The position numbers were made by a program, and so were the translations under genes. The notes under the pieces are model-generated. The model saw nothing but the letters and a program-made list of their open reading frames with translations. It had not been told where the DNA came from and did no database searches. A stretch of 64,000 nucleotides of DNA from Escherichia coli (GTDB lineage: Bacteria > Pseudomonadota > Gammaproteobacteria > Enterobacterales > Enterobacteriaceae): NCBI RefSeq assembly GCF_044647545.1, contig NZ_CP172818.1; one strand, written 5' to 3'. Below are positions 2,431 through 56,286 of this stretch, one piece after another (position 1 is the stretch's first letter; each line of letters opens with the position of its first letter).

Positions 2431-5403
2431 TTACCAGTGCACTCCAATGGTGAGAAACGCATTGTTGCGCTCTCCGTTACGTTGATTAATCGCCTTAAAG
2501 GTATGTTGATACTCGACGCCGAGACTGACTTTGTGCGGCCAGGCGTCGTAGTGCGTCTCGCCGGTCCAGATATTCCAGCGGACCCCGACACCGCCAAGCT
2601 GCGCGCCCTGAGTGCCTTTATCACGATAGCCGTTGTCCTGAACGTGAGCGTAAGGCTCAATAGTCTGTCCGTTAGCTACCTTCTGATGCCAGCTGACGCG
2701 ATAATCTGCCGTCCACGCCTGAATATCCTGGCGGATATATTGCGCTGCATCGAGGTACAGGTTTTGGGCAAACCAGCCTGAACCGTTCGGGTGCCATTCG
2801 TCGCTGTATTTGCCGCCATTAAAGAATGAGGCGCTGGCGCGCAGCATGGTATCGGATGCGCCATTTTGCCCGTTCAGCGGCAACTGCTGTTCGACGGCGA
2901 GGAAAAAGATCTGATCGCGCAGCGGCTTCCAGCGCAGACCGGTGCCGGACATCGGATTTTTCACCGGCATCATCACCCCGTTTTCTCCAGTATCGGCAAA
3001 TACACGGCTGTAAACCGAGAGCAGGTCGCCTTCCAGCAGCATATTGCGTCCGATGCGATACTCGGCTTCCAGTTGCCCGTAGCTACGATAGCTTTTCCCT
3101 GGCGCTGCGCCGCCGACATTATTGTTAGCGGTACTTATTGCGCCGGAACGCAAGCCGATAGAAGAATCGAAACTGAACGTCCAGCGGCGACCGACCTCCT
3201 CATGCAGACGGCGGAAATTGAAGCGTTGCTGATTTTGCTCTGGGGTCAGTGGGGTTATCAGCGCCTGATTATCAATGTCATCAATCACCAGCCGGGCGTA
3301 GTGCTGCGTCGCAGGCATGTCATCCAGACGCTGGTTCACGTAGGCCAGTTGTCGGATAAGTGCCGGATCGTCCGGTAGCCCTTTATGCGCCTGTTCGAGC
3401 ATTTCCCGCGACTGTGCGATATCACCGCTATCCCACAAGGCGTAACCGAGCGCTGCCTGGGTGTTGCTATTATTCGGTTCCAGTTCCAGCGCGGCGCGCA
3501 AATCACTCACCGCCGCCGGGACATTATGACGTTGGCGATAAATTGTCGCCCGCGCAACGTAAGCGTTGGCAGAAGGCGCAATATTGATTGAGCGCGTGAG
3601 ATCGTTCAGTGCGAGTTCCGGCTGACCAGGAATGTAACGTTGCGCATGCAGCCACCAGTAGAGGGCATTGTTTCCCAGCCCACGTTGTTCTGCCTGCTGA
3701 AGCCAGCGATCGCGAGCCGCACCATTTCCTGCCGCCTGGGCGGTATTGGCAGCAGCAAGCAGATCCTCATTGCTCATGTCGTGAAGACTGATTTTCTGCC
3801 AGGCCGCCAGTGCGGTGGCGTAGTCCTCAACCTGATACGCCTGATAGGCTACCGCACGATGTTGCCAGGCGTTCGGTTGTCGTTGTTCGGCCTGAAGCCA
3901 TGCATACAACGCCACACCGGGTAGCGTGTCCCGATAACACTTTGCCAGACGGTTCCAGGCGGCGGCATCGTAGGAAGGCGACATATCGCCCAGCAAGCGA
4001 ACTATTGCCGGGCAATTATCTGCAATACCCGGCAACTGACTTTGCCACTGACGTTGCTCCGCCAGCGGTAAAGGTTTCGATAAAATCGCCACCTTCGCCG
4101 GCGTTGCCAGGTAAGGATGACTTTCCAGCAGAGACGCCAGTCGCGCCATTAACGTCTGGCTGACACGCGCATCGCCCTGGAAAGGATAGCGTTGCAGCAA
4201 TAAATCGGCAGCTTCGCGTGACTGCTCGTTCTGCATCAGTTGCCAGGTCAGTTGATCCAGGCGGGTAAGATTTGCCGGTTCTTGCTGATACAGCAATCGT
4301 GCCAGACGCAGAGCTTCAGCCTTGTTATGGGTCGCTACGCTAACGGTATAACGCTCCTCAAGCATTTCATTGGCGGGGAGGGTGGCGAGCAGTTTTTGCG
4401 CTGCGTCGTACTGACCTTCTTTTAACAGCACCGGTAGCGTCGCGCCAACAACATACTGGCGGTTATCGGCAAACTGTACCGTATAATTCGCCAACGCCTG
4501 AACGGGGTTGACGCTGTATTTAGATAACAGATAGAGCCAACTTTTCTCTTGTGCGTCCGTGGTAAACAGCGGCTTATTTTCAATGAGATAATGCTGGAGG
4601 CGCGCTTTTTCGCCACGATAAGCCAGCGCGGTCGCGTAAGTAATATATGACTGAGGATCGGTGAAGATCCCCTGTGATTGCAGCGCCAGGATCCGATCAT
4701 CCAGCTGCGCGGCAAGAAGCACGTCAAACCACTGACGGCGTTCTGCCGCGCTTAATGTGTTCTGCTGGCGTGCTTCATTATATAGCGTATCTGCCTGGGA
4801 CCATTGTTTCAGGTAGATTGCGCGTTGCAGCAGATCGGTTCGCAACGTTTTTCCTTCCGGCGATGCAGCAAACGTCGCATCGTTTAGTTGCGCTCTGGCG
4901 ACAGGTAATTGTGCCAGCCGCAGGGCATTCTGCCCGACTTCACTGCGACAACGCAGGGTCGGCGCAGCGTCGCACGCTTTTTGCTGGGCAAGCAGTTCTT
5001 CAACAGTCGTAACGCTTTTCACTTCAACTGGAATAGCCGCCAGACTGCGCTCAAGTCGGGCATCTCCTGGGTGACGTTTCAGTTGATCCTCAAGCAACAG
5101 CCGCGCCCGGTCATCATGACCAAAATGGCGATAGGCTTCCGCAAGGTATAAAGTCAGCGGAATATTATCCGGCACCTGCTGGTGTATATATTCAAATTCG
5201 CGGATGGCGGTTGCTTCGTCGTTATTTTTCTGTGCCTTCAGCGCCTTGTCGAGACGGGGATAAATAACGAAATGGCGATAATCGCTCAGCCCCAGCTCTT
5301 CTGCGCTGGTGCCGATATTGTCTGCGAGTGCGCTGGTACTCAATAAAGACGTCAGCAGTAAACCAGACCATCCGATGACGCGATTAAGGTTATTCTCCTT
5401 CAT
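2431..5403 (-). CDS. nfrA: Outer-membrane phage N4 receptor subunit / polysaccharide export protein with TPR repeats
   Basis: 990-aa product starting MKENNLNRVIGWSGLLLTSLLSTSALA (signal peptide), long TPR-like N-terminal half, C-terminus ending in an aromatic residue (…GVHW) typical of outer-membrane beta-barrels. Confidence 0.9.
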   Translation of the reverse strand: MKENNLNRVIGWSGLLLTSLLSTSALADNIGTSAEELGLSDYRHFVIYPRLDKALKAQKNNDEATAIREFEYIHQQVPDNIPLTLYLAEAYRHFGHDDRARLLLEDQLKRHPGDARLERSLAAIPVEVKSVTTVEELLAQQKACDAAPTLRCRSEVGQNALRLAQLPVARAQLNDATFAASPEGKTLRTDLLQRAIYLKQWSQADTLYNEARQQNTLSAAERRQWFDVLLAAQLDDRILALQSQGIFTDPQSYITYATALAYRGEKARLQHYLIENKPLFTTDAQEKSWLYLLSKYSVNPVQALANYTVQFADNRQYVVGATLPVLLKEGQYDAAQKLLATLPANEMLEERYTVSVATHNKAEALRLARLLYQQEPANLTRLDQLTWQLMQNEQSREAADLLLQRYPFQGDARVSQTLMARLASLLESHPYLATPAKVAILSKPLPLAEQRQWQSQLPGIADNCPAIVRLLGDMSPSYDAAAWNRLAKCYRDTLPGVALYAWLQAEQRQPNAWQHRAVAYQAYQVEDYATALAAWQKISLHDMSNEDLLAAANTAQAAGNGAARDRWLQQAEQRGLGNNALYWWLHAQRYIPGQPELALNDLTRSINIAPSANAYVARATIYRQRHNVPAAVSDLRAALELEPNNSNTQAALGYALWDSGDIAQSREMLEQAHKGLPDDPALIRQLAYVNQRLDDMPATQHYARLVIDDIDNQALITPLTPEQNQQRFNFRRLHEEVGRRWTFSFDSSIGLRSGAISTANNNVGGAAPGKSYRSYGQLEAEYRIGRNMLLEGDLLSVYSRVFADTGENGVMMPVKNPMSGTGLRWKPLRDQIFFLAVEQQLPLNGQNGASDTMLRASASFFNGGKYSDEWHPNGSGWFAQNLYLDAAQYIRQDIQAWTADYRVSWHQKVANGQTIEPYAHVQDNGYRDKGTQGAQLGGVGVRWNIWTGETHYDAWPHKVSLGVEYQHTFKAINQRNGERNNAFLTIGVHW

Positions 5404-7627
5404 TTTCGGACTCCAGTTGCGCAACCTTTTCTGTGTTTAAACCTGCTTTGAGTAATAGTGATTGCATCGAAACTTGTAATTCGCGTTGAATTGTCAGAAC
5501 GCGATCCAACGTTTCCTGGCTGATAACGCCTTCGGTGACCAAAAACTTGCCGAGCGGCAGAGAACTGCGTTCATGGTGCAATAACAACACGTTAATTGCT
5601 GAACGATTAATATGACCGAGCGTGGTCAGTATTTCGGCGAACAGGAACTGATGCGGCACATATTGCCGCCAGATTTCACCGGCCTGCTGTTCCGTGAGCC
5701 ACTGATGCTGAACCGCATTGTACAACATTGCCCGCGGATCGTGACCGCGTCGGCGCGCATACCAGTGGCGTAACCCCGTGACAATTTGTCCCCGCAGAAC
5801 AATGACGTAACGCACTTTGCGTCCGACTTTACGCGTCAGGGCCGCCAGCGAAACCGGGTCAATACCATCTTCACTGCCGACAATTAACTCATCATTTTCC
5901 AGACGCAGCGGCAGCACTGCATAATGCAGCGCCACGGAGGCCGGCATCTCGGCAATCAGTGATGAAGGGATCTGCCAGGCGTCGATCGACTCCCACGCCA
6001 CGCCGTTTTGCTCTGCCAGCGCCTGTGCCAGCTGCTCGGCGCTAATCAGCCCCTGCATCAGCATTGAACCGCCAAGGCGTAGACCTTCGACGCGATTACG
6101 CAGTGCTGTATCGAGTTGTTCTTCAGTGATGACCTGATTTTCCAGCAGAATTTGACCTAACGGGCGCAACGAGCGGGTATCGCCAGTCACGCTGGGGAAG
6201 TCATGCGTTGTTTTATCCCACGCCACGCGACGTGGATCGCCGTGTTGAAGTACCTGTTTTAACGCGCGCCAGTTGGCCATGAAGTTAATCAGGTTGCCCC
6301 AGAAAAGACGCAGGACAGATAGTAGCCCCTGCGTCAGGCCGTAGTAGCCAGTGACGAAAATCACCCGCTGCACGATGCGGTTAACCATCAAGCCAAAGTT
6401 TAGCCACAGCAGGGTCATTAACCATGCGCTGCCGCTGAAAATAGAAAGGAAATGCCAGGCATCGGGCCACAAACTTTCATACGCCAGTAACAGCAAAAGC
6501 TGGATCATCACCAGCATCGCGAGGAAGCTGACAAAGTTACTGATTGCCCCTTTGCGGTCGCGCCAGAGAAAGTAGTTCAGCGTCAGGCTGGAGGTCCATT
6601 TGTGGGTTTTAAAGCCCTGGAAAACAATGCCGATGATCCAGCGAGATTTTTGTCGAACCGCCGTCGAAAAGGTATCGGGGAAATATTCGCGCACGCAGAT
6701 CATGTTTGACGTCCGCGCGTGCTGTAAAAATTTACGCTGCTCGCGTTCTTTGGCTTCGTCCACCACCGGAAAACGGACAAAAATTTCCGTCATACCTTTT
6801 TCTTTCAGGCGGAAACCAATGTCGTAATCTTCAGTAAGACTCTGCACGTCGAAAGCAATACCGTCACCGTCAGCTAACAGTGCGGTCACGGCGCGGCGGC
6901 TGAAACAAGTACCGACACCTGCGCTGGGCACCTGTCCGGCGAGGGCTTCACGCACCGGAACATCTTTGCCATGCAGTTCTGAAAACTCATCAATGTAAGT
7001 CATGCTGGTGAAGTGCGTCCATTCGCGTTCGAATGGGTATACCGGGATCTGAATCAGATCTTTACGCTCGACCAGATAGTTGAACAGACGCAATTCCATC
7101 GGTGAAATTACGTCTTCGGCGTCATGCAGAATAAAACCAGCAAAAGCGAAATTGGCGCTACGCTCAAACTGGGTGATGGCGTCCAGCACGTTGTTCAGGC
7201 AGTCGGCTTTGCTGGTGGGGCCAGGACGCGCGCAGACTACCTTATGCACGTTTGGGAAGCGAGCGCACACTTCGTCAACATCACGCTGAGTATCGGGGTC
7301 GTTGGGGTAGGTGCCAACAAAGATATGATAGTTTTCATAGTCGAGCGTGGTCGCCGCCAGCTCGGCCATATTGCCGATGACGCCCGTTTCATTCCACGCC
7401 GGAACCATAATCGCTAACGGTTTTTCATCTGGTTTATACAGTTCGCGGTAACTCATTCGCGGGTAGCGGCGATAAACACTCAACTTGCGTTTAATGCGGC
7501 GTACCCAGTAGACGACATCAATAAAAAAATCGTCCAGCCCGCTGATGAACATGATGACCGCTAACGTTATCGCGATTACTTTTAAGCCATATAGCCAGGT
7601 TGCAAAAACATCAAGAAGCCAGTCCAC
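5390..7627 (-). CDS. nfrB: Inner-membrane family-2 glycosyltransferase, phage N4 adsorption protein B (c-di-GMP-responsive)
   Basis: 745-aa ORF with N-terminal transmembrane segment, a DAED acidic motif and a QKSRW (QxxRW) motif characteristic of processive GT2 synthases; overlaps the nfrA start by 14 bp. Confidence 0.9.
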   Translation of the reverse strand: MDWLLDVFATWLYGLKVIAITLAVIMFISGLDDFFIDVVYWVRRIKRKLSVYRRYPRMSYRELYKPDEKPLAIMVPAWNETGVIGNMAELAATTLDYENYHIFVGTYPNDPDTQRDVDEVCARFPNVHKVVCARPGPTSKADCLNNVLDAITQFERSANFAFAGFILHDAEDVISPMELRLFNYLVERKDLIQIPVYPFEREWTHFTSMTYIDEFSELHGKDVPVREALAGQVPSAGVGTCFSRRAVTALLADGDGIAFDVQSLTEDYDIGFRLKEKGMTEIFVRFPVVDEAKEREQRKFLQHARTSNMICVREYFPDTFSTAVRQKSRWIIGIVFQGFKTHKWTSSLTLNYFLWRDRKGAISNFVSFLAMLVMIQLLLLLAYESLWPDAWHFLSIFSGSAWLMTLLWLNFGLMVNRIVQRVIFVTGYYGLTQGLLSVLRLFWGNLINFMANWRALKQVLQHGDPRRVAWDKTTHDFPSVTGDTRSLRPLGQILLENQVITEEQLDTALRNRVEGLRLGGSMLMQGLISAEQLAQALAEQNGVAWESIDAWQIPSSLIAEMPASVALHYAVLPLRLENDELIVGSEDGIDPVSLAALTRKVGRKVRYVIVLRGQIVTGLRHWYARRRGHDPRAMLYNAVQHQWLTEQQAGEIWRQYVPHQFLFAEILTTLGHINRSAINVLLLHHERSSLPLGKFLVTEGVISQETLDRVLTIQRELQVSMQSLLLKAGLNTEKVAQLESENEGE

Positions 7628-7776: not shown

Positions 7777-9219
7777 TTAAGCGGGTAGTTTGATCATAAA
7801 CCTTGTTCCCCGCGCATCTGACGTTACTGCAACCGTGCCTTTATGCGCGACAACAATTGATTTCACTATCGCCAGCCCAATGCCGCTACCTTCGCCTTTT
7901 CGCTGGCGGGAAGGATCAACGCGGTAGAAACGGTCAAACAATCGCGGTAAGTGTTCGGGCGCAATGGGCGTACCGGGGTTTTCGACGGAAACTTGCACCT
8001 GGTGATCGACCGTCTGGCAGCGCACAACAATTGCCTCTCCGGGTGGCGTATAACGCAGGGCGTTCGAAAGCAGGTTGCTTAACGCCCGACGCAACATCAG
8101 CGGATCGCCCGCAACCTGACACTCGTCACCAACAAACCGCAACTCCACGCCGCGATCTTCCGCTAACGCCTCGAAAAAATCGAACACTTTGCCGACTTCA
8201 TCCGCCAGGTTGAGCATTTTCTTTTCGGGGATTAACTGGTTGTTATCGGCCTGAGCGAGAAACAGCATATCGCTGACCATTTTCGCCATTCGAGTCAGCT
8301 CTTCGAGATTAGAGTAGAGCACATCTTCCAGCTCCTTCTGACTGCGCGACTGGCTGAGGGCGATTTCCGTTTGCGTTATGAGATTCGTAATCGGCGTGCG
8401 AATTTCGTGAGCGATATCCGCTGAGAAATTGGACTGGCGGGTAAAGACATCCTCGATACGCTCGATCATATGGTTGAACGACAGCACCAGTTGTTCGAGT
8501 TCAATGGGCACGGTCTGTGGATCGAGGCGAACGTCGAGATCTTTCGAGGTAATGTTCTGGATTTGACGGCTGACGCTGCGAATTGGCGCGTGGCCTTTAT
8601 GTACCGCCAGCAGCACGATAAAGACGATCAGGATGCTGATGATCGATGCGGTCATAATAAGTTTATTCATCAAATCATTTATGTAATGAAGATGAAAATC
8701 GATCGAAAGCGCGATGTAGAGCGTATAAATCGGTTTGCCGTCCACCAACGGGCCAACCGGCAAGTTAATCATCCGCCAGTTGCTGTGTTCCATATGCCCG
8801 TGACCGTGGCCTGGCATCATAATCGTCGGGCCGGAAAGGAGATACACCTCGCCACCCTGAGCGTCTTTATCGGGTATGGCGTCACGCGTAAACTCGCGGA
8901 TATCCGGCGCACCGGGGGAGTGATACACCGTTTTGCCGTGGCTATCTGCCAGGGAAATCAACACGTTGGAATAACCACTGACGATATCTTCCAGCGTCAT
9001 TAAGCGTCGGGCTTGCGTCTCGTCAGGATGATTAAGTACCCGTTCAAGGGTGGCGCTAATTTCTTTTAAATCATTAATATCCTGCTCGGCAAAATGCACT
9101 TTCACTGAGTGGATCATGATCCATGCAAAGGCGAAAAACGCCGCGATGGTGGCCAGGCTGATAAAAAAGGTCAGACGGGTTGCCAGCGAAAACGGGCGCT
9201 GAAATGGCTTACTGACCAT
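7777..9219 (-). CDS. cusS: Copper/silver-sensing histidine kinase
   Basis: 480-aa product from [16 protein letters not shown]; two transmembrane segments flanking a periplasmic domain, conserved His-containing phosphoacceptor region ([10 protein letters not shown]) and ATPase domain; overlaps cusR by 11 bp. Confidence 0.9.
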
Positions 9220-9892
9220 CCGGCACCTCAAGCATATAGCCCACGCCGCGCACGGTCTGAATCAGCTTCGGCTCAAAGTCGTTGTCGATTTTGCCGCGTA
9301 GCCGCTTCACCGCCACATCAATGGCGTTAGTGTCGCTGTCGAAATTCATGTCCCACACCTGCGAGGCGATAAGCGAGCGGGGCAGCACTTCACCCTGATG
9401 GCGGAGGAAAAACTCCAGCAAAGTAAATTCTTTACTGGTCAACGTGATGCGCGTGCCGCTACGGGTGACTTTGCGGCTGACGAGATCGACCATCAGATCG
9501 GCAACCTGAAACTGACTTTCGATAATCACCGCCGCCCCGCGCCGCAGTAGAGTGCGCACCCGCGCCAGCAGTTCAGCAAAAGCGAACGGCTTAACCAGAT
9601 AGTCATCCGCCCCCAACTCCAGCCCCTTGACGCGATGTTCAATGGTGCCAAGCGCGGTAAGCAACAGAATCGGCATCCCCTTATTGGCGGAACGCAACAT
9701 GCGCACGATATCCCAGCCGTTCACGTCCGGCAGCATAATATCGAGGATTATCAGATCATAATCACCGGTCATCGCCAGATGGTAGCCATTCAGCCCGTTG
9801 TCGGCCAAATCGACCACAAAACCGGCTTCGGTTAACCCTTTGGTCAAGTATTCTCCGGTTTTCTTTTCATCTTCGACAATCAACAGTTTCAT
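9209..9892 (-). CDS. cusR: OmpR-family response regulator for copper/silver efflux
   Basis: 227-aa ORF with receiver domain ([11 protein letters not shown]…, [10 protein letters not shown]) and winged-helix C-terminus; recognised as CusR. Confidence 0.92.
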
Positions 9893-9956
9893 ATTTCCTC
9901 CGCATGTTGCCCGGGCAATTCTAGAGTAGCGGGATCAGATGGCAATCGCTTATTGG

Positions 9957-9978
9957 CAAAATGACAATTTTGTCATTT
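9957..9978. promoter_or_regulatory. CusR box: perfect palindrome AAAATGACAA-TT-TTGTCATTTT in the cusR/cusC divergent promoter region
   Basis: Perfect 10-2-10 inverted repeat read directly in the intergenic sequence between divergent cusR and cusC; matches the CusR operator as I recall it. Confidence 0.6.
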
Positions 9979-10048
9979 TCCTGTCACCGGAAAATCAGAG
10001 CCTGGCGAGTAAAGTTGGCGGCATAAAATCACCAGAAATTATGAGCCT

Positions 10049-11437
10049 ATGTCTCCTTGTAAACTTCTGCCATTTTGTGTGGCCCTTGCGCTAACCGGTT
10101 GTTCACTGGCACCGGATTATCAGCGTCCGGCAATGCCCGTGCCGCAGCAGTTCTCACTCAGCCAGAACGGCCTGGTTAACGCAGCAGATAACTACCAGAA
10201 CGCGGGCTGGCGCACCTTTTTTGTTGATAATCAGGTGAAGACGCTGATTAGCGAGGCGTTGGTGAATAACCGGGATTTACGCATGGCGGCGCTGAAAGTG
10301 CAGGAGGCACGGGCGCAATATCGTCTGACCGATGCCGACCGCTACCCACAGCTCAATGGCGAGGGCAGCGGCAGCTGGAGCGGTAATCTTAAAGGGAATA
10401 CCGCCACGACACGGGAGTTTTCGACCGGCCTTAACGCCAGCTTTGACCTCGATTTTTTCGGGCGCTTAAAGAACATGAGCGAAGCCGAGCGTCAAAATTA
10501 TTTAGCTACTGAGGAAGCTCAGCGCGCGGTGCATATTCTGCTGGTTTCTAATGTCGCGCAAAGCTATTTCAATCAGCAACTGGCGTATGCGCAAGTGCAA
10601 ATAGCCGAAGAAACGCTGCGTAATTATCAGCAGTCATATGCATTTGTCGAAAAACAACTGTTGACCGGTAGCAGCAATGTTCTGGCGCTAGAACAGGCTC
10701 GCGGGGTGATAGAAAGTACCCGCAGCGACATCGCTAAACGTCAGGGGGAACTGGCGCAGGCGAATAATGCATTGCAACTGTTATTGGGAAGCTACGGCAA
10801 GCTGCCGCAAGCGCAGACAGTAAACAGCGACAGCCTGCAAAGCGTTAAATTACCGGCGGGCTTGTCGTCGCAAATCTTATTGCAGCGCCCTGATATTATG
10901 GAAGCTGAACACGCGTTAATGGCGGCTAATGCCAATATTGGCGCTGCACGCGCGGCATTTTTCCCGTCTATCAGCCTGACCAGCGGAATATCGACCGCCA
11001 GTAGCGATCTGTCGTCATTATTTAACGCCAGCAGCGGGATGTGGAATTTTATACCCAAAATTGAGATCCCCATTTTTAATGCCGGACGCAACCAGGCCAA
11101 TCTGGATATCGCCGAAATTCGCCAGCAGCAGTCGGTGGTGAATTATGAACAGAAAATCCAGAATGCCTTTAAAGAAGTGGCAGATGCGCTGGCATTACGT
11201 CAAAGCCTGAACGATCAAATCAGCGCCCAGCAGCGTTATCTGGCATCGCTGAAAATTACTTTGCAACGGGCGCGGGCATTATATCAGCACGGCGCAGTAA
11301 GTTATCTGGAAGTGCTGGATGCCGAGCGTTCTTTATTTGCAACCCGACAAACTTTACTTGACCTGAATTATGCCCGTCAGGTTAACGAAATTTCTTTATA
11401 TACCGCCTTAGGGGGCGGTTGGCAGCAAAATTTTTAA
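10049..11437 (+). CDS. cusC: Outer-membrane factor lipoprotein of the Cus efflux system
   Basis: ORF beginning MSPCKLLPFCVALALTGC (lipoprotein signal with lipobox Cys); TolC-like OMF family; 462 aa in this frame, a few residues longer than I remember for K-12. Confidence 0.92.
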   Translation: MSPCKLLPFCVALALTGCSLAPDYQRPAMPVPQQFSLSQNGLVNAADNYQNAGWRTFFVDNQVKTLISEALVNNRDLRMAALKVQEARAQYRLTDADRYPQLNGEGSGSWSGNLKGNTATTREFSTGLNASFDLDFFGRLKNMSEAERQNYLATEEAQRAVHILLVSNVAQSYFNQQLAYAQVQIAEETLRNYQQSYAFVEKQLLTGSSNVLALEQARGVIESTRSDIAKRQGELAQANNALQLLLGSYGKLPQAQTVNSDSLQSVKLPAGLSSQILLQRPDIMEAEHALMAANANIGAARAAFFPSISLTSGISTASSDLSSLFNASSGMWNFIPKIEIPIFNAGRNQANLDIAEIRQQQSVVNYEQKIQNAFKEVADALALRQSLNDQISAQQRYLASLKITLQRARALYQHGAVSYLEVLDAERSLFATRQTLLDLNYARQVNEISLYTALGGGWQQNF

Positions 11438-11453
11438 CTCCAGGAGAGAATAA

Positions 11454-11786
11454 ATGAAAAAAGCACTGCAAGTCGCGATGTTCAGTCTGTTTACCGTTAT
11501 TGGCTTTAATGCCCAGGCTAACGAACATCATCATGAAACCATGAGCGAAGCACAACCACAGGTTATTAGCGCCACTGGCGTGGTAAAAGGTGTTGATCTG
11601 GAAAGCAAAAAAATCACCATCCATCACGATCCGATTGCTGCCGTGAACTGGCCGGAGATGACCATGCGCTTTACCATCACCCCGCAGACGAAAATGAGCG
11701 AAATTAAAACCGGCGACAAAGTGGCGTTTAATTTTGTCCAGCAGGGCAACCTTTCTTTATTACAGGATATTAAAGTCAGCCAGTAA
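11454..11786 (+). CDS. cusF: Periplasmic copper/silver chaperone
   Basis: 110-aa ORF with signal peptide and the His/Met/Trp-containing region (…HDPIAAVNWPEMTMRF…) recognised as CusF. Confidence 0.9.
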   Translation: MKKALQVAMFSLFTVIGFNAQANEHHHETMSEAQPQVISATGVVKGVDLESKKITIHHDPIAAVNWPEMTMRFTITPQTKMSEIKTGDKVAFNFVQQGNLSLLQDIKVSQ

Positions 11787-11801
11787 CCCAGGTTTAATGA
11801 G

Positions 11802-13025
11802 ATGAAAAAAATCGCGCTTATTATCGGCAGCATGATTGCGGGCGGTATTATTTCTGCGGCAGGTTTTACCTGGTTTGCAAAGGCTGAACCGCCCGCAGAA
11901 AAAACGCCGACCGCAGAACGTAAAATCTTATTCTGGTACGACCCGATGTATCCCAATACGCGGTTCGATAAACCAGGTAAATCGCCGTTTATGGATATGG
12001 ATCTGGTGCCGAAATATGCCGATGAAGAGAGTTCTGCGTCTGGTGTACGCATTGACCCGACCCAGACGCAGAATCTGGGGGTGAAAACGGCGACCGTCAC
12101 GCGCGGGCCGCTGACTTTTGCCCAGAGTTTCCCGGCGAATGTCAGTTACAACGAGTATCAGTATGCCATTGTGCAGGCTCGCGCTGCCGGGTTTATCGAT
12201 AAGGTGTATCCGCTTACCGTGGGCGATAAAGTACAAAAGGGCACACCGCTTCTCGACCTGACCATTCCCGACTGGGTGGAAGCGCAGAGTGAGTATTTAC
12301 TGCTGCGCGAAACCGGCGGTACGGCGACCCAGACTGAAGGCATTCTTGAGCGGCTGAGACTGGCGGGAATGCCGGAGGCGGATATTCGCCGCCTGATCGC
12401 CACGCAAAAAATCCAGACTCGCTTTACGCTCAAAGCGCCCATTGATGGCGTGATCACCGCGTTTGATCTGCGCGCGGGAATGAATATCGCCAAAGATAAC
12501 GTGGTCGCGAAAATTCAGGGTATGGACCCGGTGTGGGTCACTGCTGCGATCCCGGAGTCCATCGCCTGGCTGGTGAAAGATGCCTCGCAGTTTACGCTCA
12601 CCGTTCCGGCGCGACCTGATAAAACACTCACCATTCGCAAATGGACGCTGCTACCCGGCGTGGATGCCGCGACCCGCACGCTGCAACTGCGTCTGGAAGT
12701 CGACAACGCCGACGAGGCGCTAAAACCGGGCATGAACGCCTGGTTGCAACTCAATACCGCCAGCGAACCGATGCTGCTCATTCCGTCACAGGCGCTGATT
12801 GATACCGGCAACGAACAGCGGGTGATTACCGTTGATGCTGACGGGCGCTTTGTACCGAAACGCGTTGCCGTTTTCCAGGCATCGCAAGGCGTCACCGCGT
12901 TACGCTCTGGTCTGGCGGAAGGTGAAAAGGTGGTTTCCAGCGGCCTGTTCCTGATTGATTCTGAAGCCAATATTTCTGGCGCACTGGAGCGGATGCGCTC
13001 TGAAAGTGCTACCCATGCGTATTGA
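11802..13025 (+). CDS. cusB: Membrane fusion (periplasmic adaptor) protein of the Cus efflux system
   Basis: 407-aa ORF, N-terminal membrane anchor, RND adaptor family; sits between cusF and cusA. Confidence 0.92.
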   Translation: MKKIALIIGSMIAGGIISAAGFTWFAKAEPPAEKTPTAERKILFWYDPMYPNTRFDKPGKSPFMDMDLVPKYADEESSASGVRIDPTQTQNLGVKTATVTRGPLTFAQSFPANVSYNEYQYAIVQARAAGFIDKVYPLTVGDKVQKGTPLLDLTIPDWVEAQSEYLLLRETGGTATQTEGILERLRLAGMPEADIRRLIATQKIQTRFTLKAPIDGVITAFDLRAGMNIAKDNVVAKIQGMDPVWVTAAIPESIAWLVKDASQFTLTVPARPDKTLTIRKWTLLPGVDAATRTLQLRLEVDNADEALKPGMNAWLQLNTASEPMLLIPSQALIDTGNEQRVITVDADGRFVPKRVAVFQASQGVTALRSGLAEGEKVVSSGLFLIDSEANISGALERMRSESATHAY

Positions 13026-13036
13026 GGGAATAACCA

Positions 13037-16000
13037 ATGATTGAATGGATTATTCGTCGCTCGGTGGCGAACCGTTTTCTGGTGCTGATGGGCGCGTTGT
13101 TTCTGAGCATCTGGGGCACCTGGACCATCATTAACACGCCAGTGGATGCGCTGCCGGATCTCTCTGATGTACAGGTGATTATTAAAACCAGCTATCCCGG
13201 TCAGGCACCGCAAATCGTTGAAAATCAGGTGACTTATCCGCTAACCACCACCATGTTGTCGGTACCTGGCGCGAAGACAGTGCGCGGTTTCTCGCAGTTT
13301 GGCGACTCTTATGTGTATGTCATTTTTGAAGATGGCACCGATCCGTACTGGGCGCGCTCGCGGGTGCTGGAGTACCTCAATCAGGTACAGGGGAAGCTGC
13401 CTGCGGGAGTCAGCGCCGAGCTGGGGCCAGACGCCACGGGCGTTGGCTGGATCTATGAATATGCACTGGTAGATCGCAGCGGTAAGCACGATCTGGCCGA
13501 TTTACGCTCATTGCAGGACTGGTTTCTCAAATATGAGCTAAAAACCATCCCTGACGTTGCGGAAGTGGCGTCGGTGGGCGGTGTGGTGAAAGAGTATCAG
13601 GTGGTTATCGATCCTCAGCGCCTGGCGCAGTATGGCATCAGTCTCGCCGAAGTAAAAAGCGCGCTGGATGCTTCAAACCAGGAAGCGGGCGGTTCGTCGA
13701 TCGAACTGGCGGAAGCGGAATATATGGTGCGCGCCAGCGGATATCTGCAAACGCTCGACGACTTTAATCACATCGTTTTAAAAGCCAGTGAAAATGGCGT
13801 GCCCGTTTATCTGCGTGATGTTGCGAAGGTCCAGGTTGGCCCGGAGATGCGCCGGGGCATTACCGAACTGAACGGCGAAGGCGAAGTGGCGGGCGGGGTG
13901 GTGATCCTGCGTTCCGGCAAAAACGCCCGTGAAGTGATCGCTGCCGTGAAGGACAAACTGGAAACGCTGAAAAGCAGTCTGCCGGAAGGCGTGGAGATAG
14001 TTACAACATACGATCGCAGCCAGCTCATTGACCGCGCCATTGACAACCTCAGTGGCAAGTTGCTGGAAGAGTTTATTGTGGTGGCGGTAGTCTGTGCGCT
14101 GTTTCTCTGGCATGTGCGCTCGGCGCTGGTGGCGATTATTTCGTTGCCGCTGGGGTTGTGTATTGCTTTTATTGTCATGCACTTTCAGGGACTGAACGCC
14201 AATATTATGTCGCTGGGCGGTATTGCGATTGCCGTCGGGGCGATGGTCGATGCCGCTATCGTCATGATCGAGAATGCGCATAAACGGCTGGAAGAGTGGC
14301 AGCACCAGCATCCTGACGCCACGCTGGATAATAAAACGCGCTGGCAGGTGATTACCGATGCATCTGTTGAAGTGGGGCCGGCGCTGTTTATCAGTCTGCT
14401 GATTATCACGCTGTCGTTTATCCCGATCTTCACCCTGGAAGGGCAGGAAGGTCGTCTGTTTGGCCCGCTGGCGTTCACCAAAACCTATGCGATGGCGGGC
14501 GCGGCGCTACTGGCGATCGTAGTGATCCCGATCCTGATGGGCTACTGGATCCGTGGCAAAATTCCGCCGGAAAGCAGTAACCCGCTCAATCGCTTTTTGA
14601 TTCGTGTTTATCATCCGCTGTTGCTGAAAGTACTGCACTGGCCGAAAACCACGCTGTTGGTGGCAGCGCTTTCGGTGCTGACGGTACTCTGGCCGCTCAA
14701 TAAAGTTGGCGGGGAATTTTTACCGCAGATCAATGAAGGCGACTTGTTGTATATGCCATCGACGCTGCCGGGGATTTCCGCAGCAGAGGCGGCGAGCATG
14801 CTGCAAAAAACCGACAAGCTGATTATGAGCGTACCGGAAGTGGCGCGGGTATTTGGCAAAACCGGGAAAGCGGAAACCGCCACCGATTCAGCTCCACTGG
14901 AGATGGTAGAAACGACTATCCAGCTTAAGCCACAAGATCAGTGGCGGCCAGGCATGACGATGGACAAAATCATTGAGGAACTGGATAACACCGTGCGTCT
15001 GCCGGGGCTGGCGAATCTGTGGGTGCCGCCAATTCGTAACCGTATCGATATGCTCTCGACTGGCATTAAAAGCCCTATCGGCATTAAAGTTTCCGGCACT
15101 GTGCTGGCGGATATCGACACGATGGCGGAGCAAATTGAAGAAGTGGCGCGAACGGTGCCAGGCGTAGCTTCTGCTCTTGCCGAGCGGCTGGAAGGTGGGC
15201 GCTATATCAACGTTGAGATTAACCGTGAAAAAGCCGCGCGTTACGGTATGACGGTGGCGGATGTGCAATTGTTTGTGAAATCTGCGGTGGGCGGGGCGAT
15301 GGTTGGCGAAACGGTGGAAGGGATTGCCCGTTATCCAATTAATCTGCGTTATCCGCAAAGCTGGCGCGATAGCCCGCAGGCACTGCGCCAGTTGCCGATC
15401 CTCACGCCGATGAAGCAGCAAATCACCCTGGCAGACGTGGCCGACGTTAAAGTCTCTACCGGACCGTCGATGCTGAAAACCGAGAATGCGCGCCCGACGA
15501 GCTGGATTTATATCGATGCCCGCGATCGTGACATGGTGTCGGTGGTTCACGATCTGCAAAAAGCGATAGCTGAAAAAGTGCAGTTAAAACCGGGCACCAG
15601 CGTGGCATTCTCCGGGCAGTTCGAGCTACTGGAGCGCGCCAACCATAAGCTGAAACTGATGGTGCCGATGACGCTGATGATCATCTTCGTGCTGTTGTAC
15701 CTGGCGTTCCGTCGGGTGGGCGAAGCGTTGCTGATTATCAGCAGCGTACCGTTTGCGCTGGTGGGCGGCATCTGGTTGCTGTGGTGGATGGGCTTTCATC
15801 TTTCCGTGGCGACGGGCACCGGTTTTATTGCCCTTGCCGGGGTCGCCGCCGAATTTGGCGTGGTGATGCTGATGTATTTACGTCACGCCATAGAGGCCGA
15901 GCCGTCGTTGAATAATCCGCAAACATTCAGCGAGCAGAAGCTGGATGAGGCGTTGTATCACGGCGCGGTCCTGCGCGTGCGCCCGAAAGCGATGACGGTG

Positions 16001-16180
16001 GCGGTGATTATCGCTGGTCTGCTGCCGATTCTGTGGGGAACGGGAGCAGGTTCAGAGGTGATGAGCCGGATTGCCGCGCCGATGATTGGCGGCATGATCA
16101 CCGCGCCTTTGCTATCGCTGTTTATTATCCCGGCGGCGTATAAGCTGATGTGGCTGCACCGACATCGGGTACGGAAATAA
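13037..16180 (+). CDS. cusA: RND-family heavy-metal efflux pump, inner-membrane component
   Basis: 1047-aa ORF with 12-TM RND topology and large periplasmic loops; recognised as CusA. Confidence 0.95.
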
Positions 16181-16281
16181 AAGCAGGATACCCCGTTTAA
16201 CCGTGTGGATTGTGTCTTGCGACGATGGGCACTAAATGTTAAAAGGTGCCCCTCAACAAAAAAGACACACAGGGGAAAGGC

Positions 16282-17658
16282 GTGAAAAACGCGTCAACCG
16301 TATCGGAAGATACTGCGTCGAATCAAGAGCCGACGCTTCATCGCGGATTACATAACCGTCATATTCAACTGATTGCGCTGGGTGGCGCAATTGGTACTGG
16401 TCTGTTTCTTGGCATTGGCCCGGCGATTCAGATGGCGGGTCCGGCTGTATTGCTGGGCTACGGCGTCGCCGGGATCATCGCTTTCCTGATTATGCGCCAG
16501 CTTGGCGAAATGGTGGTTGAGGAGCCGGTATCCGGTTCATTTGCCCACTTTGCCTATAAATACTGGGGACCGTTTGCGGGCTTCCTCTCTGGCTGGAACT
16601 ACTGGGTAATGTTCGTGCTGGTGGGAATGGCAGAGCTGACCGCTGCGGGCATCTATATGCAGTACTGGTTCCCGGATGTTCCAACGTGGATTTGGGCTGC
16701 CGCCTTCTTTATTATCATCAACGCCGTTAACCTGGTGAACGTGCGCTTATATGGCGAAACCGAGTTCTGGTTTGCGCTGATTAAAGTGCTGGCGATCATC
16801 GGTATGATCGGCTTTGGCCTGTGGCTGCTGTTTTCTGGGCACGGCGGCGAGAAAGCCAGTATCGATAACCTCTGGCGCTACGGTGGTTTTTTTGCCACCG
16901 GCTGGAATGGGCTGATTTTGTCGCTGGCGGTGATTATGTTCTCCTTCGGCGGGCTGGAGCTGATTGGGATTACTGCCGCTGAAGCGCGCGCTCCGGAAAA
17001 AAGCATCCCGAAAGCAGTGAATCAGGTGGTGTATCGCATCCTGCTGTTTTATATCGGTTCACTGGTGGTTTTACTGGCACTCTATCCGTGGGTGGAAGTG
17101 AAATCCAACAGTAGCCCGTTTGTGATGATTTTCCATAATCTCGACAGCAACGTGGTAGCCTCTGCGCTGAACTTCGTCATTCTGGTAGCATCATTATCGG
17201 TGTATAACAGCGGGGTTTACTCTAACAGCCGCATGCTGTTTGGCCTTTCTGTGCAGGGTAATGCGCCGAAGTTTTTGACTCGCGTCAGCCGTCGCGGTGT
17301 GCCGATTAACTCGCTGATGCTTTCCGGAGCGATCACTTCGCTGGTGGTGTTAATCAACTATCTGCTGCCGCAAAAAGCGTTTGGTCTGCTGATGGCGCTG
17401 GTGGTAGCAACGCTGCTGTTGAACTGGATTATGATCTGCCTGGCGCATCTTCGTTTTCGTGCTGCGATGCGACGTCAGGGACGTGAAACACAGTTTAAGG
17501 CGCTGCTTTATCCGTTCGGCAACTATCTCTGCATTGCCTTCCTCGGCATGATTTTGCTGCTGATGTGCACGATGGATGATATGCGCTTGTCAGCGATTCT
17601 GCTGCCGGTGTGGATTGTATTCCTGTTTGTAGCATTTAAAACGCTGCGTCGGAAATAA
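16282..17658 (+). CDS. pheP: Phenylalanine-specific permease (APC family)
   Basis: Start taken at GTG (VKNASTVSEDTASNQEPTLHRGLHNRH…) preceded by a Shine-Dalgarno-like AGGGGAAAGG; 458 aa; amino-acid permease signature. Confidence 0.9.
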   Translation: MKNASTVSEDTASNQEPTLHRGLHNRHIQLIALGGAIGTGLFLGIGPAIQMAGPAVLLGYGVAGIIAFLIMRQLGEMVVEEPVSGSFAHFAYKYWGPFAGFLSGWNYWVMFVLVGMAELTAAGIYMQYWFPDVPTWIWAAAFFIIINAVNLVNVRLYGETEFWFALIKVLAIIGMIGFGLWLLFSGHGGEKASIDNLWRYGGFFATGWNGLILSLAVIMFSFGGLELIGITAAEARAPEKSIPKAVNQVVYRILLFYIGSLVVLLALYPWVEVKSNSSPFVMIFHNLDSNVVASALNFVILVASLSVYNSGVYSNSRMLFGLSVQGNAPKFLTRVSRRGVPINSLMLSGAITSLVVLINYLLPQKAFGLLMALVVATLLLNWIMICLAHLRFRAAMRRQGRETQFKALLYPFGNYLCIAFLGMILLLMCTMDDMRLSAILLPVWIVFLFVAFKTLRRK

Positions 17659-17689: not shown

Positions 17690-17723
17690 CCGCTCTCATC
17701 CATTCGATGAGAGCGGTTTTTTT
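17690..17723. terminator. Hairpin terminator between convergent pheP and ybdG
   Basis: 11-bp perfect stem CCGCTCTCATC / GATGAGAGCGG with 5-nt loop followed by TTTTTTT, 30 bp after the pheP stop and just before the ybdG stop on the other strand. Confidence 0.6.
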
Positions 17724-17725
17724 AA

Positions 17726-19021
<1,296 letters not shown>

Positions 19022-52238: not shown

Positions 52239-52255
52239 TCGCAATCGCGTAATTA

Positions 52256-52283
52256 ATCGGGTGCTGCGGCACCCGATTTTCTT
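52256..52283 (+). terminator. Hairpin with T-tract between ahpC and ahpF (partial terminator / attenuator candidate)
   Basis: Perfect 9-bp stem ATCGGGTGC / GCACCCGAT with 4-nt loop followed by TTTCTT, 18 bp after the ahpC stop; a second imperfect inverted repeat (CATGATGCAAGC…GCTTGCATGATG) precedes the ahpF ribosome-binding site. Confidence 0.45.
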
Positions 52284-56249: not shown

Positions 56250-56286
56250 ATAAAAAAGCCCGCCAGGTGGGCTTACCTGGCGGGCG
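56250..56286 (-). terminator. Rho-independent terminator downstream of citT (minus strand)
   Basis: Perfect 10-bp palindrome GCCCGCCAGG…CCTGGCGGGC; the minus-strand transcript continues into UUUUUUAU (plus-strand ATAAAAAA at 56251-56257). Confidence 0.6.

Follow-up and report, generated by a model that had tools for sequence, protein, structure and literature searches.

The closest described counterpart of the locus analysed here is the CusR box of Escherichia coli, a feature between cusR and cusC that has already been characterised and that figures in several studies of copper regulation. The palindrome AAAATGACAAnnTTGTCATTTT, located between cusRS and cusC(F)BA, was reported to be favoured by E. 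coli CusR, with no second chromosomal CusR site found in E. coli (PLoS Genetics/bioRxiv paper), and later papers credit the sequence of the site to Munson et al (2000) and Yamamoto & Ishihama (2005). ChIP-chip at 2 mM copper gave one CusR peak only, in the cusR/cusC spacer, and genomic SELEX identified the same spacer as the sole target of unphosphorylated CusR. The binding of phospho-CusR to the box is described in a review of cusS mutants as leading to the induction of both operons, and a mutational scan by Reg-Seq (PMC12132413), in which cusC was used as a gold-standard promoter, detected activity of the cusC promoter at 2 mM copper and, under two further conditions, in single replicates. 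One group has described unphosphorylated CusR as a repressor of cusCFBA, and unmodified CusR may act at the box too. For P. paraeruginosa, the mutation of the analogous palindrome was reported to abolish the activation of the cusRS promoter (PLoS Genetics/bioRxiv paper). A sequence search of the PDB found no CusR-DNA complex, the only hits being to OmpR-family regulators, among them PcoR (its DNA-binding domain).

Several related systems share parts of this arrangement. The hprR-hiuH box of K-12, CATTACAAAATTGTAATG, a target of HprR as well as of CusR, also consists of two half-sites with 2 bases between them in a divergent spacer separating a regulator gene from a structural gene, and it is followed, at a distance of 11 bases, by a third GTAA and then by a TAnnnT at the offset seen in the cusC promoter. 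It differs from the CusR box in having TTACA/TGTAA cores instead of TGACA/TGTCA, arms of 8 bases, and a peroxide/hypochlorite-responsive operon. The same dyad, with 0–2 core mismatches, is present at the plasmid promoters of silR/silC, of silE, and downstream of pcoS (a pcoE-type copper box), where it is followed by a third element, CTGTCAC, CTGTCAT or CAGTCAC, and by a CAG block and a −10 element at identical offsets. The silE and post-pcoS promoters differ from the present locus in being one-directional and in having the consensus −10 TATAAT, with SilR and PcoR as their cognate regulators; CusR has been reported as an activator of pcoE (PLoS Genetics/bioRxiv paper). The occurrence of the dyad at these two one-directional promoters therefore identifies it as the standard site of the family, and not as an adaptation to divergent operons. 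The palindrome ATTCATnnATGTAAT of Pseudomonas CusR/CopR/CzcR likewise lies in a divergent spacer between a regulator gene and a copper gene and is common to several paralogous regulators, but its half-site sequence is another one, and the regulator is ~70% identical to E. coli CusR.

The DNA that we analysed, referred to as the window, is a stretch of 64,000 nucleotides from E. coli, in which the sequence AAAATGACAATTTTGTCATTTT occupies positions 9958–9979, near the middle of the cusR/cusC spacer. Its left, cusR-proximal arm AAAATGACAA (9958–9967, with the TGACA core at 9962–9966) and its right, cusC-proximal arm TTGTCATTTT (9970–9979, with the TGTCA core at 9971–9975) are 100% complementary and are separated by the 2-base gap TT (9968–9969), which corresponds to NN in the consensus and to CA in sil. 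The comparison of the 22-mer with its own reverse complement gave 2 differences, both of which are at the central TT. The structure is thus a perfect 10-2-10 hyphenated dyad; since TT is not its own complement, the term 22-bp palindrome does not strictly apply. Of the "perfect 22-bp palindrome" in the preliminary description, the perfection of the arms (10/10) therefore stands, and only the strict palindrome is lost. The range given there, 9893–10048, is the complete 156-bp spacer, of which the dyad is only a part; the centre of the dyad (9968.5) is offset by 2 bases from that of the spacer. Its placement between a divergent two-component operon and an efflux operon was confirmed, with cusR on the minus strand and cusC on the plus strand.

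The dyad at 9958–9979 was found to be letter-for-letter the published E. coli CusR box AAAATGACAANNTTGTCATTTT, and it lies where that box is located, in the spacer of the divergent cusRS and cusCFBA operons. Compared with the K-12 box, the same 20 specified bases are found at the same position in the same species, and the box itself is identical; the only difference is one base beyond it, at 9980, which is C here and T in K-12-like strains. Nothing in this analysis contradicted the assignment, and we conclude with high confidence that the dyad is the CusR box and serves as operator for the copper/silver-responsive CusS/CusR two-component system. The earlier proposal that one operator gives copper-responsive activation of both operons is supported by the published box, the ChIP-chip and genomic SELEX results, the review of cusS mutants, and Reg-Seq, and the experiments that had been proposed alongside it have in substance already been done by others. 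For the binding of CusR, the dependence on copper, and the control of two operons we rely on published work; the sequence, its position, its non-randomness, the genes, and the conservation were computed in this study.

The flanking genes were assigned as follows. The response regulator gene cusR (9209–9892, minus strand, 227 aa) was identified by the model NCBIfam NF007346 with 507.9 bits against a cut-off of 420 and by the RefSeq annotation. The sensor kinase gene cusS was identified in the longest ORF at 7777–9231 on the minus strand by NCBIfam NF007345 with 982 bits; the match starts at residue 5 of this ORF and the RefSeq cusS is 1449 nt long, and the true start of cusS is probably a few codons inside the ORF. 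The efflux operon cusCFBA (10049–16180, plus strand), which consists of cusC (10049–11437), cusF (11454–11786), cusB (11802–13025), and cusA (13037–16180), matched NCBIfam models far above their curated cut-offs and agreed with the RefSeq annotation, the RefSeq gene names being taken from a 100%-identical E. coli record. The cusC product is 462 aa long here and 460, 459, and 457 aa long in other E. coli records, the differences being in-frame. To the left of cusS, the minus-strand ORF at 5390–7627 (745 aa) encodes glycosyltransferase-2 and MshEN domains and is NfrB-like. Strain FDAARGOS_497, which carries a 100%-identical spacer, has T6SS vgrG/Rhs genes at that place, and the region left of cusS is therefore strain-variable.

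As for non-randomness, the expected number of matches to the 22-mer was 0.00 even with 3 mismatches permitted (100 shuffles of the window), and the 22-mer was unique in the 64-kb window with up to 3 mismatches tolerated. A perfect 10-base inverted repeat arose in 10 of 5,000 simulated 156-bp spacers (first-order Markov model, repeat spacer of at most 10). Over the whole 64-kb window, ~1 repeat of this kind would arise by chance, compared with 4 distinct ones observed, so that the argument for the dyad rests on its location and conservation and not on the repeat alone. The other three repeats are at 17690–17716, 52255–52278, and 56258–56285. The first of these, between the plus-strand ORF 16246–17658 (pheP) and the minus-strand ORF 17726–18991 (ybdG), both named by correspondence to an annotated E. 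coli record, looks like a shared terminator. Two further repeats within the spacer were rejected as features: an inverted repeat at 9975–9995 is not conserved in sil and was regarded as a chance or incidental occurrence, and a direct repeat of 20 bases (9984–10003 and 10029–10048, copies offset by 45 bases, with 80% identity), whose second copy abuts the cusC start codon, is likewise not conserved in sil and is probably due to chance.

The spacer was found in 5333 of 5426 complete E. coli genomes, being 100% identical in many chromosomes and missing from 93 genomes; five copies are on records labelled as plasmids, for example, NZ_CP110860 (113 kb, with 99.6% identity in cusR/cusC). The 46 bases around the box were perfectly matched in 3335 E. 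coli genomes and had one change in 1897. The common change among the aligned E. coli alleles is C/T at 9980, in the linker just past the box, which probably accounts for the one difference seen in the 46-mer in ~36% of genomes, and BL21 has a C to T change at 9987. These natural SNPs leave the arms and the third TGTCA core described below untouched, and no arm substitution was found in the five other E. coli alleles that were aligned. In the silR/silC paralogue, the coding flanks are ~70% identical and four islands stand out from an otherwise diverged spacer, namely the box with 1 mismatch and the spacer CA, the segment CCTGTCACC immediately 3' of the box, a CAGAG block followed by GTAAAGT, and, on the cusR side, CATTCTA, which represents the minus-strand TAGAAT of a promoter-like TTGCCA-16-TAGAAT site. 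The same conserved islands were observed in Citrobacter werkmanii. A CpxR-type GTAAA repeat around GTAAAGT was considered and rejected, as the second repeat was absent on reading the sequence.

Putative promoters were located on the two sides of the box. On the cusC side, the hexamer TAAAGT at 10010–10015 (plus strand), which falls on a TAnnnT at a fixed offset across loci, is the putative −10 element, and no consensus promoter was found on the plus strand of the spacer, there being no −35 match on the cusC side. With a −10 and no −35, the cusC promoter would therefore be activator-dependent. The candidates CTGTCA and the CAG block were both rejected as a −35 hexamer on account of their spacings to the conserved −10, which are 23 and 12 bases, respectively. 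For a predicted cusC start at ~10022, the box would extend from −64 to −43 (centre at −53.5) and the third TGTCA from −40 to −36. On the cusR side, a putative promoter lies at 9918–9945 on the minus strand, with a −35 TTGCCA (9945–9940), a 16-base spacer, and a −10 TAGAAT (9923–9918), matching the consensus at 10 of 12 positions; sil and Citrobacter retain this −10 and have a similar −35. The box would be centred at about −57.5 for the predicted cusR start, and this position, together with the near-consensus promoter, fits basal expression with modest autoinduction. The two promoter sides are thus not equivalent, in that conserved extra elements are present on the cusC side only and cusR has a near-consensus promoter of its own; in the study of PhoB, too, the change was larger for cusC than for cusR. 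In E. coli O19:H7 730V1 (NZ_CP061764), an IS903B-family insertion is located right after CAGAGC, at about window position 10001, so that the CusR box lies on one side of it and the putative cusC −10 and cusC itself on the other; it should silence the copper induction of the efflux pump.

The mechanism that best explains this arrangement is that Cu(I) or Ag(I) in the periplasm would activate CusS, leading to the phosphorylation of CusR, and that CusR, a winged-helix regulator of the OmpR/PhoB family, would then occupy the TGACA/TGTCA half-sites of 9958–9979. The bound CusR would activate the cusCFBA promoter to the right of the box, presumably through contact with RNA polymerase, and the same bound site would also boost the cusRS promoter to the left.

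For a family-wide test, 80 regulator loci from other species were fetched by a protein scan with CusR, and not by a DNA motif. A single relative was close (Citrobacter, 98%) and the others were 45–70% identical, so that the footprint within the enterobacteria rests on few sequences, whereas the family-wide test benefited. The 14-base core was found with at most 3 mismatches in 21 of 79 regulator loci, when the best match within 350 bases upstream was taken, and the control segments gave no core match at up to 2 mismatches. Nearly all regulators of the core-matching loci were at least ~53% identical to CusR, and the dyad was located 40–115 bases from the start codon. The dyad of the window has the form T(G/T)ACA-N4-TGT(C/A)A and precedes a gene for a CusR-like regulator or for copper handling, which places it in the copper-box family of heavy-metal response regulators (sites of CopR, CusR, PcoR, SilR, and HprR). 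We then stacked 22 loci, each oriented like the window with its regulator gene on the left, and scored the occurrence of motifs offset by offset. The left arm contained T[GT]AC in 20 of the 22 loci and the right arm GT[CA]A in 21.

Beyond the dyad, the stack revealed a fixed layout that, relative to the dyad, is a property of the structural-gene promoter only. A GTCA located 11 bases past the right-arm GTCA (at 9983 in the window) was present in 12 of the 22 loci against a background of 0.21 per position (binomial P ~3e-19), whereas TGAC at the mirror position on the regulator side (9951) was present in 3 (background ~0.15; Fisher P of 0.005–0.01 for the asymmetry), and a −10-like TAnnnT at the offset of 10010 was present in 10 (background 0.29; binomial P ~9e-14), it being noted that the 22 loci are not fully independent, as three of them, from Pseudomonas, resemble one another. 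On the conserved side, the neighbouring genes code for CusF-like proteins, outer-membrane efflux proteins, multicopper oxidases, and cupredoxins. The corresponding elements in the window are CTGTCAC (9981–9987, plus strand), a candidate third half-site found on the cusC side only, whose TGTCA (9982–9986) starts 11 bases after that of the right arm and is conserved in sil and Citrobacter, and the block ATCAGAG (9994–10000, plus strand; CAG at 9996–9998), which is conserved in sil, Citrobacter, silE, and the post-pcoS promoter and may be either a weak fourth repeat or another promoter element. The layout of third TGTCA, CAG block, and −10 on the structural-gene side is conserved across the stack of 22 distant loci and in 5 enterobacterial promoters, suggesting an extended, asymmetric operator.

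This leads to the alternative that survives best, which refines the CusR-box explanation and does not replace it. In it, the functional unit at cusC would be a PhoB-style head-to-tail pair formed by the right arm and the third TGTCA, TTGTCATTTTCCTGTCAC (9970–9987), possibly with a weak fourth repeat near 9994–9998, and the left arm would be used by an additional CusR molecule or for the cusR side. We give this reading a probability just short of even. It is favoured by the asymmetry between the two sides in the stacked loci, by the position of the copper-handling genes on the side of the third element, and by the recurrence of this layout, including the offset of the −10, at PsilC, PsilE, the post-pcoS promoter, and PhiuH. 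The E. coli SNPs, being in the linker (9980) or just past the motif (9987), fall outside the TGTCA. Head-to-tail binding is typical of OmpR/PhoB regulators, and the extended footprints of P. putida CopR, which cover 27–47 bases and several half-sites in the form of TGACA-like motifs, provide an experimental precedent. The published CusR box, on the other hand, is the dyad alone, no E. coli binding data on the third element were found, and the third element could instead be a contact for RNA polymerase, such as an upstream or −35-proximal element.

A comparison with the pho box bears on the same reading from both sides. The pho box, a pair of 7-base CTGTCAY direct repeats spaced 11 bases apart with an A/T-rich linker of 4 bases, has the consensus CTGTCATAWAWCTGTCAY, replaces the −35 element, and ends ~10 bases upstream of the −10. 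The right arm and the third element resemble it in representing two TGTCA repeats 11 bases apart, and the regulators are of the same family. The 18-mer 9970–9987 agreed with the pho-box consensus at 14 of 18 positions (15 of 18 in K-12; the linker is TTTC or TTTT), which is better than the 12 of 18 obtained for the dyad, and PhoB binds the cusR/cusC spacer in vivo and in vitro. The CusR site differs, however, in having an extra inverted half-site upstream and in lying ~12 bases farther from the −10: the last base of the pair is 9987 and the first of the putative −10 is 10010, a gap of 22 bases, compared with ~10 for the pho box. The pair is thus not in a position to replace a −35, and the pho box was rejected as the class for 9970–9987 because of this spacing.

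Far less probable, and in our judgment very unlikely, is that the site mainly serves HprR (peroxide/hypochlorite) and PhoB (phosphate starvation), with CusR being secondary. The strongest peak of HprR in genomic SELEX was reported to be the cusR/cusC spacer, and a ChIP-chip peak and a gel shift were reported for PhoB there, with PhoB-dependent increases in expression (log2 changes of 2.75 for cusC and 1.03 for cusR). Against this, the site adjoins cusRS and controls the copper pump, the dyad is located 40–115 bases upstream of a CusR-like regulator also in the distant loci with a close core, CusR is present on the site in vivo under copper stress, and the gel shifts with PhoB required micromolar protein. 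The binding of HprR and PhoB is best read as cross-regulation at the CusR site, and the reported binding makes the spacer a hub of cross-regulation for phosphate starvation (PhoB), peroxide/hypochlorite (HprR), and copper. An RNA hairpin (attenuator or terminator) or a DNA cruciform in place of a protein site can be dismissed as extremely improbable: the region does fold better than its shuffles (z = −3.05), but the best fold uses a shifted pairing that leaves the dyad unused, the 2-base spacer is too short for a loop, the half-site sequence is kept across the family and pairing through compensatory changes is not, neither a terminator-like T-run nor an Rfam match was found for the region, and the box should be untranscribed because it is upstream of both predicted promoters.

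Taken together, the identification of the dyad as the CusR box serves as a positive control, in that a real operator was recognised from raw sequence, and it holds nothing new as first stated. The new material is limited to the conserved third TGTCA and the fixed geometry of the −10, which represent a testable refinement with partial precedent. The third TGTCA lies one helical turn past the structural-gene-proximal arm and is conserved from E. coli to beta- and gamma-proteobacteria. We tentatively propose, while holding it to be somewhat less probable than the contrary, that the operator of the CusR family is larger and more polar than the dyad and that the third TGTCA is a regulator contact that chooses which promoter is strongly activated. 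If this is true, such a contact would account for the cross-binding by PhoB, which is a tandem-repeat binder. A functional third element could also guide the design of copper biosensors based on the cusC promoter, and it would account for the difference in activation between the two operons and for the cross-talk with HprR and PhoB.
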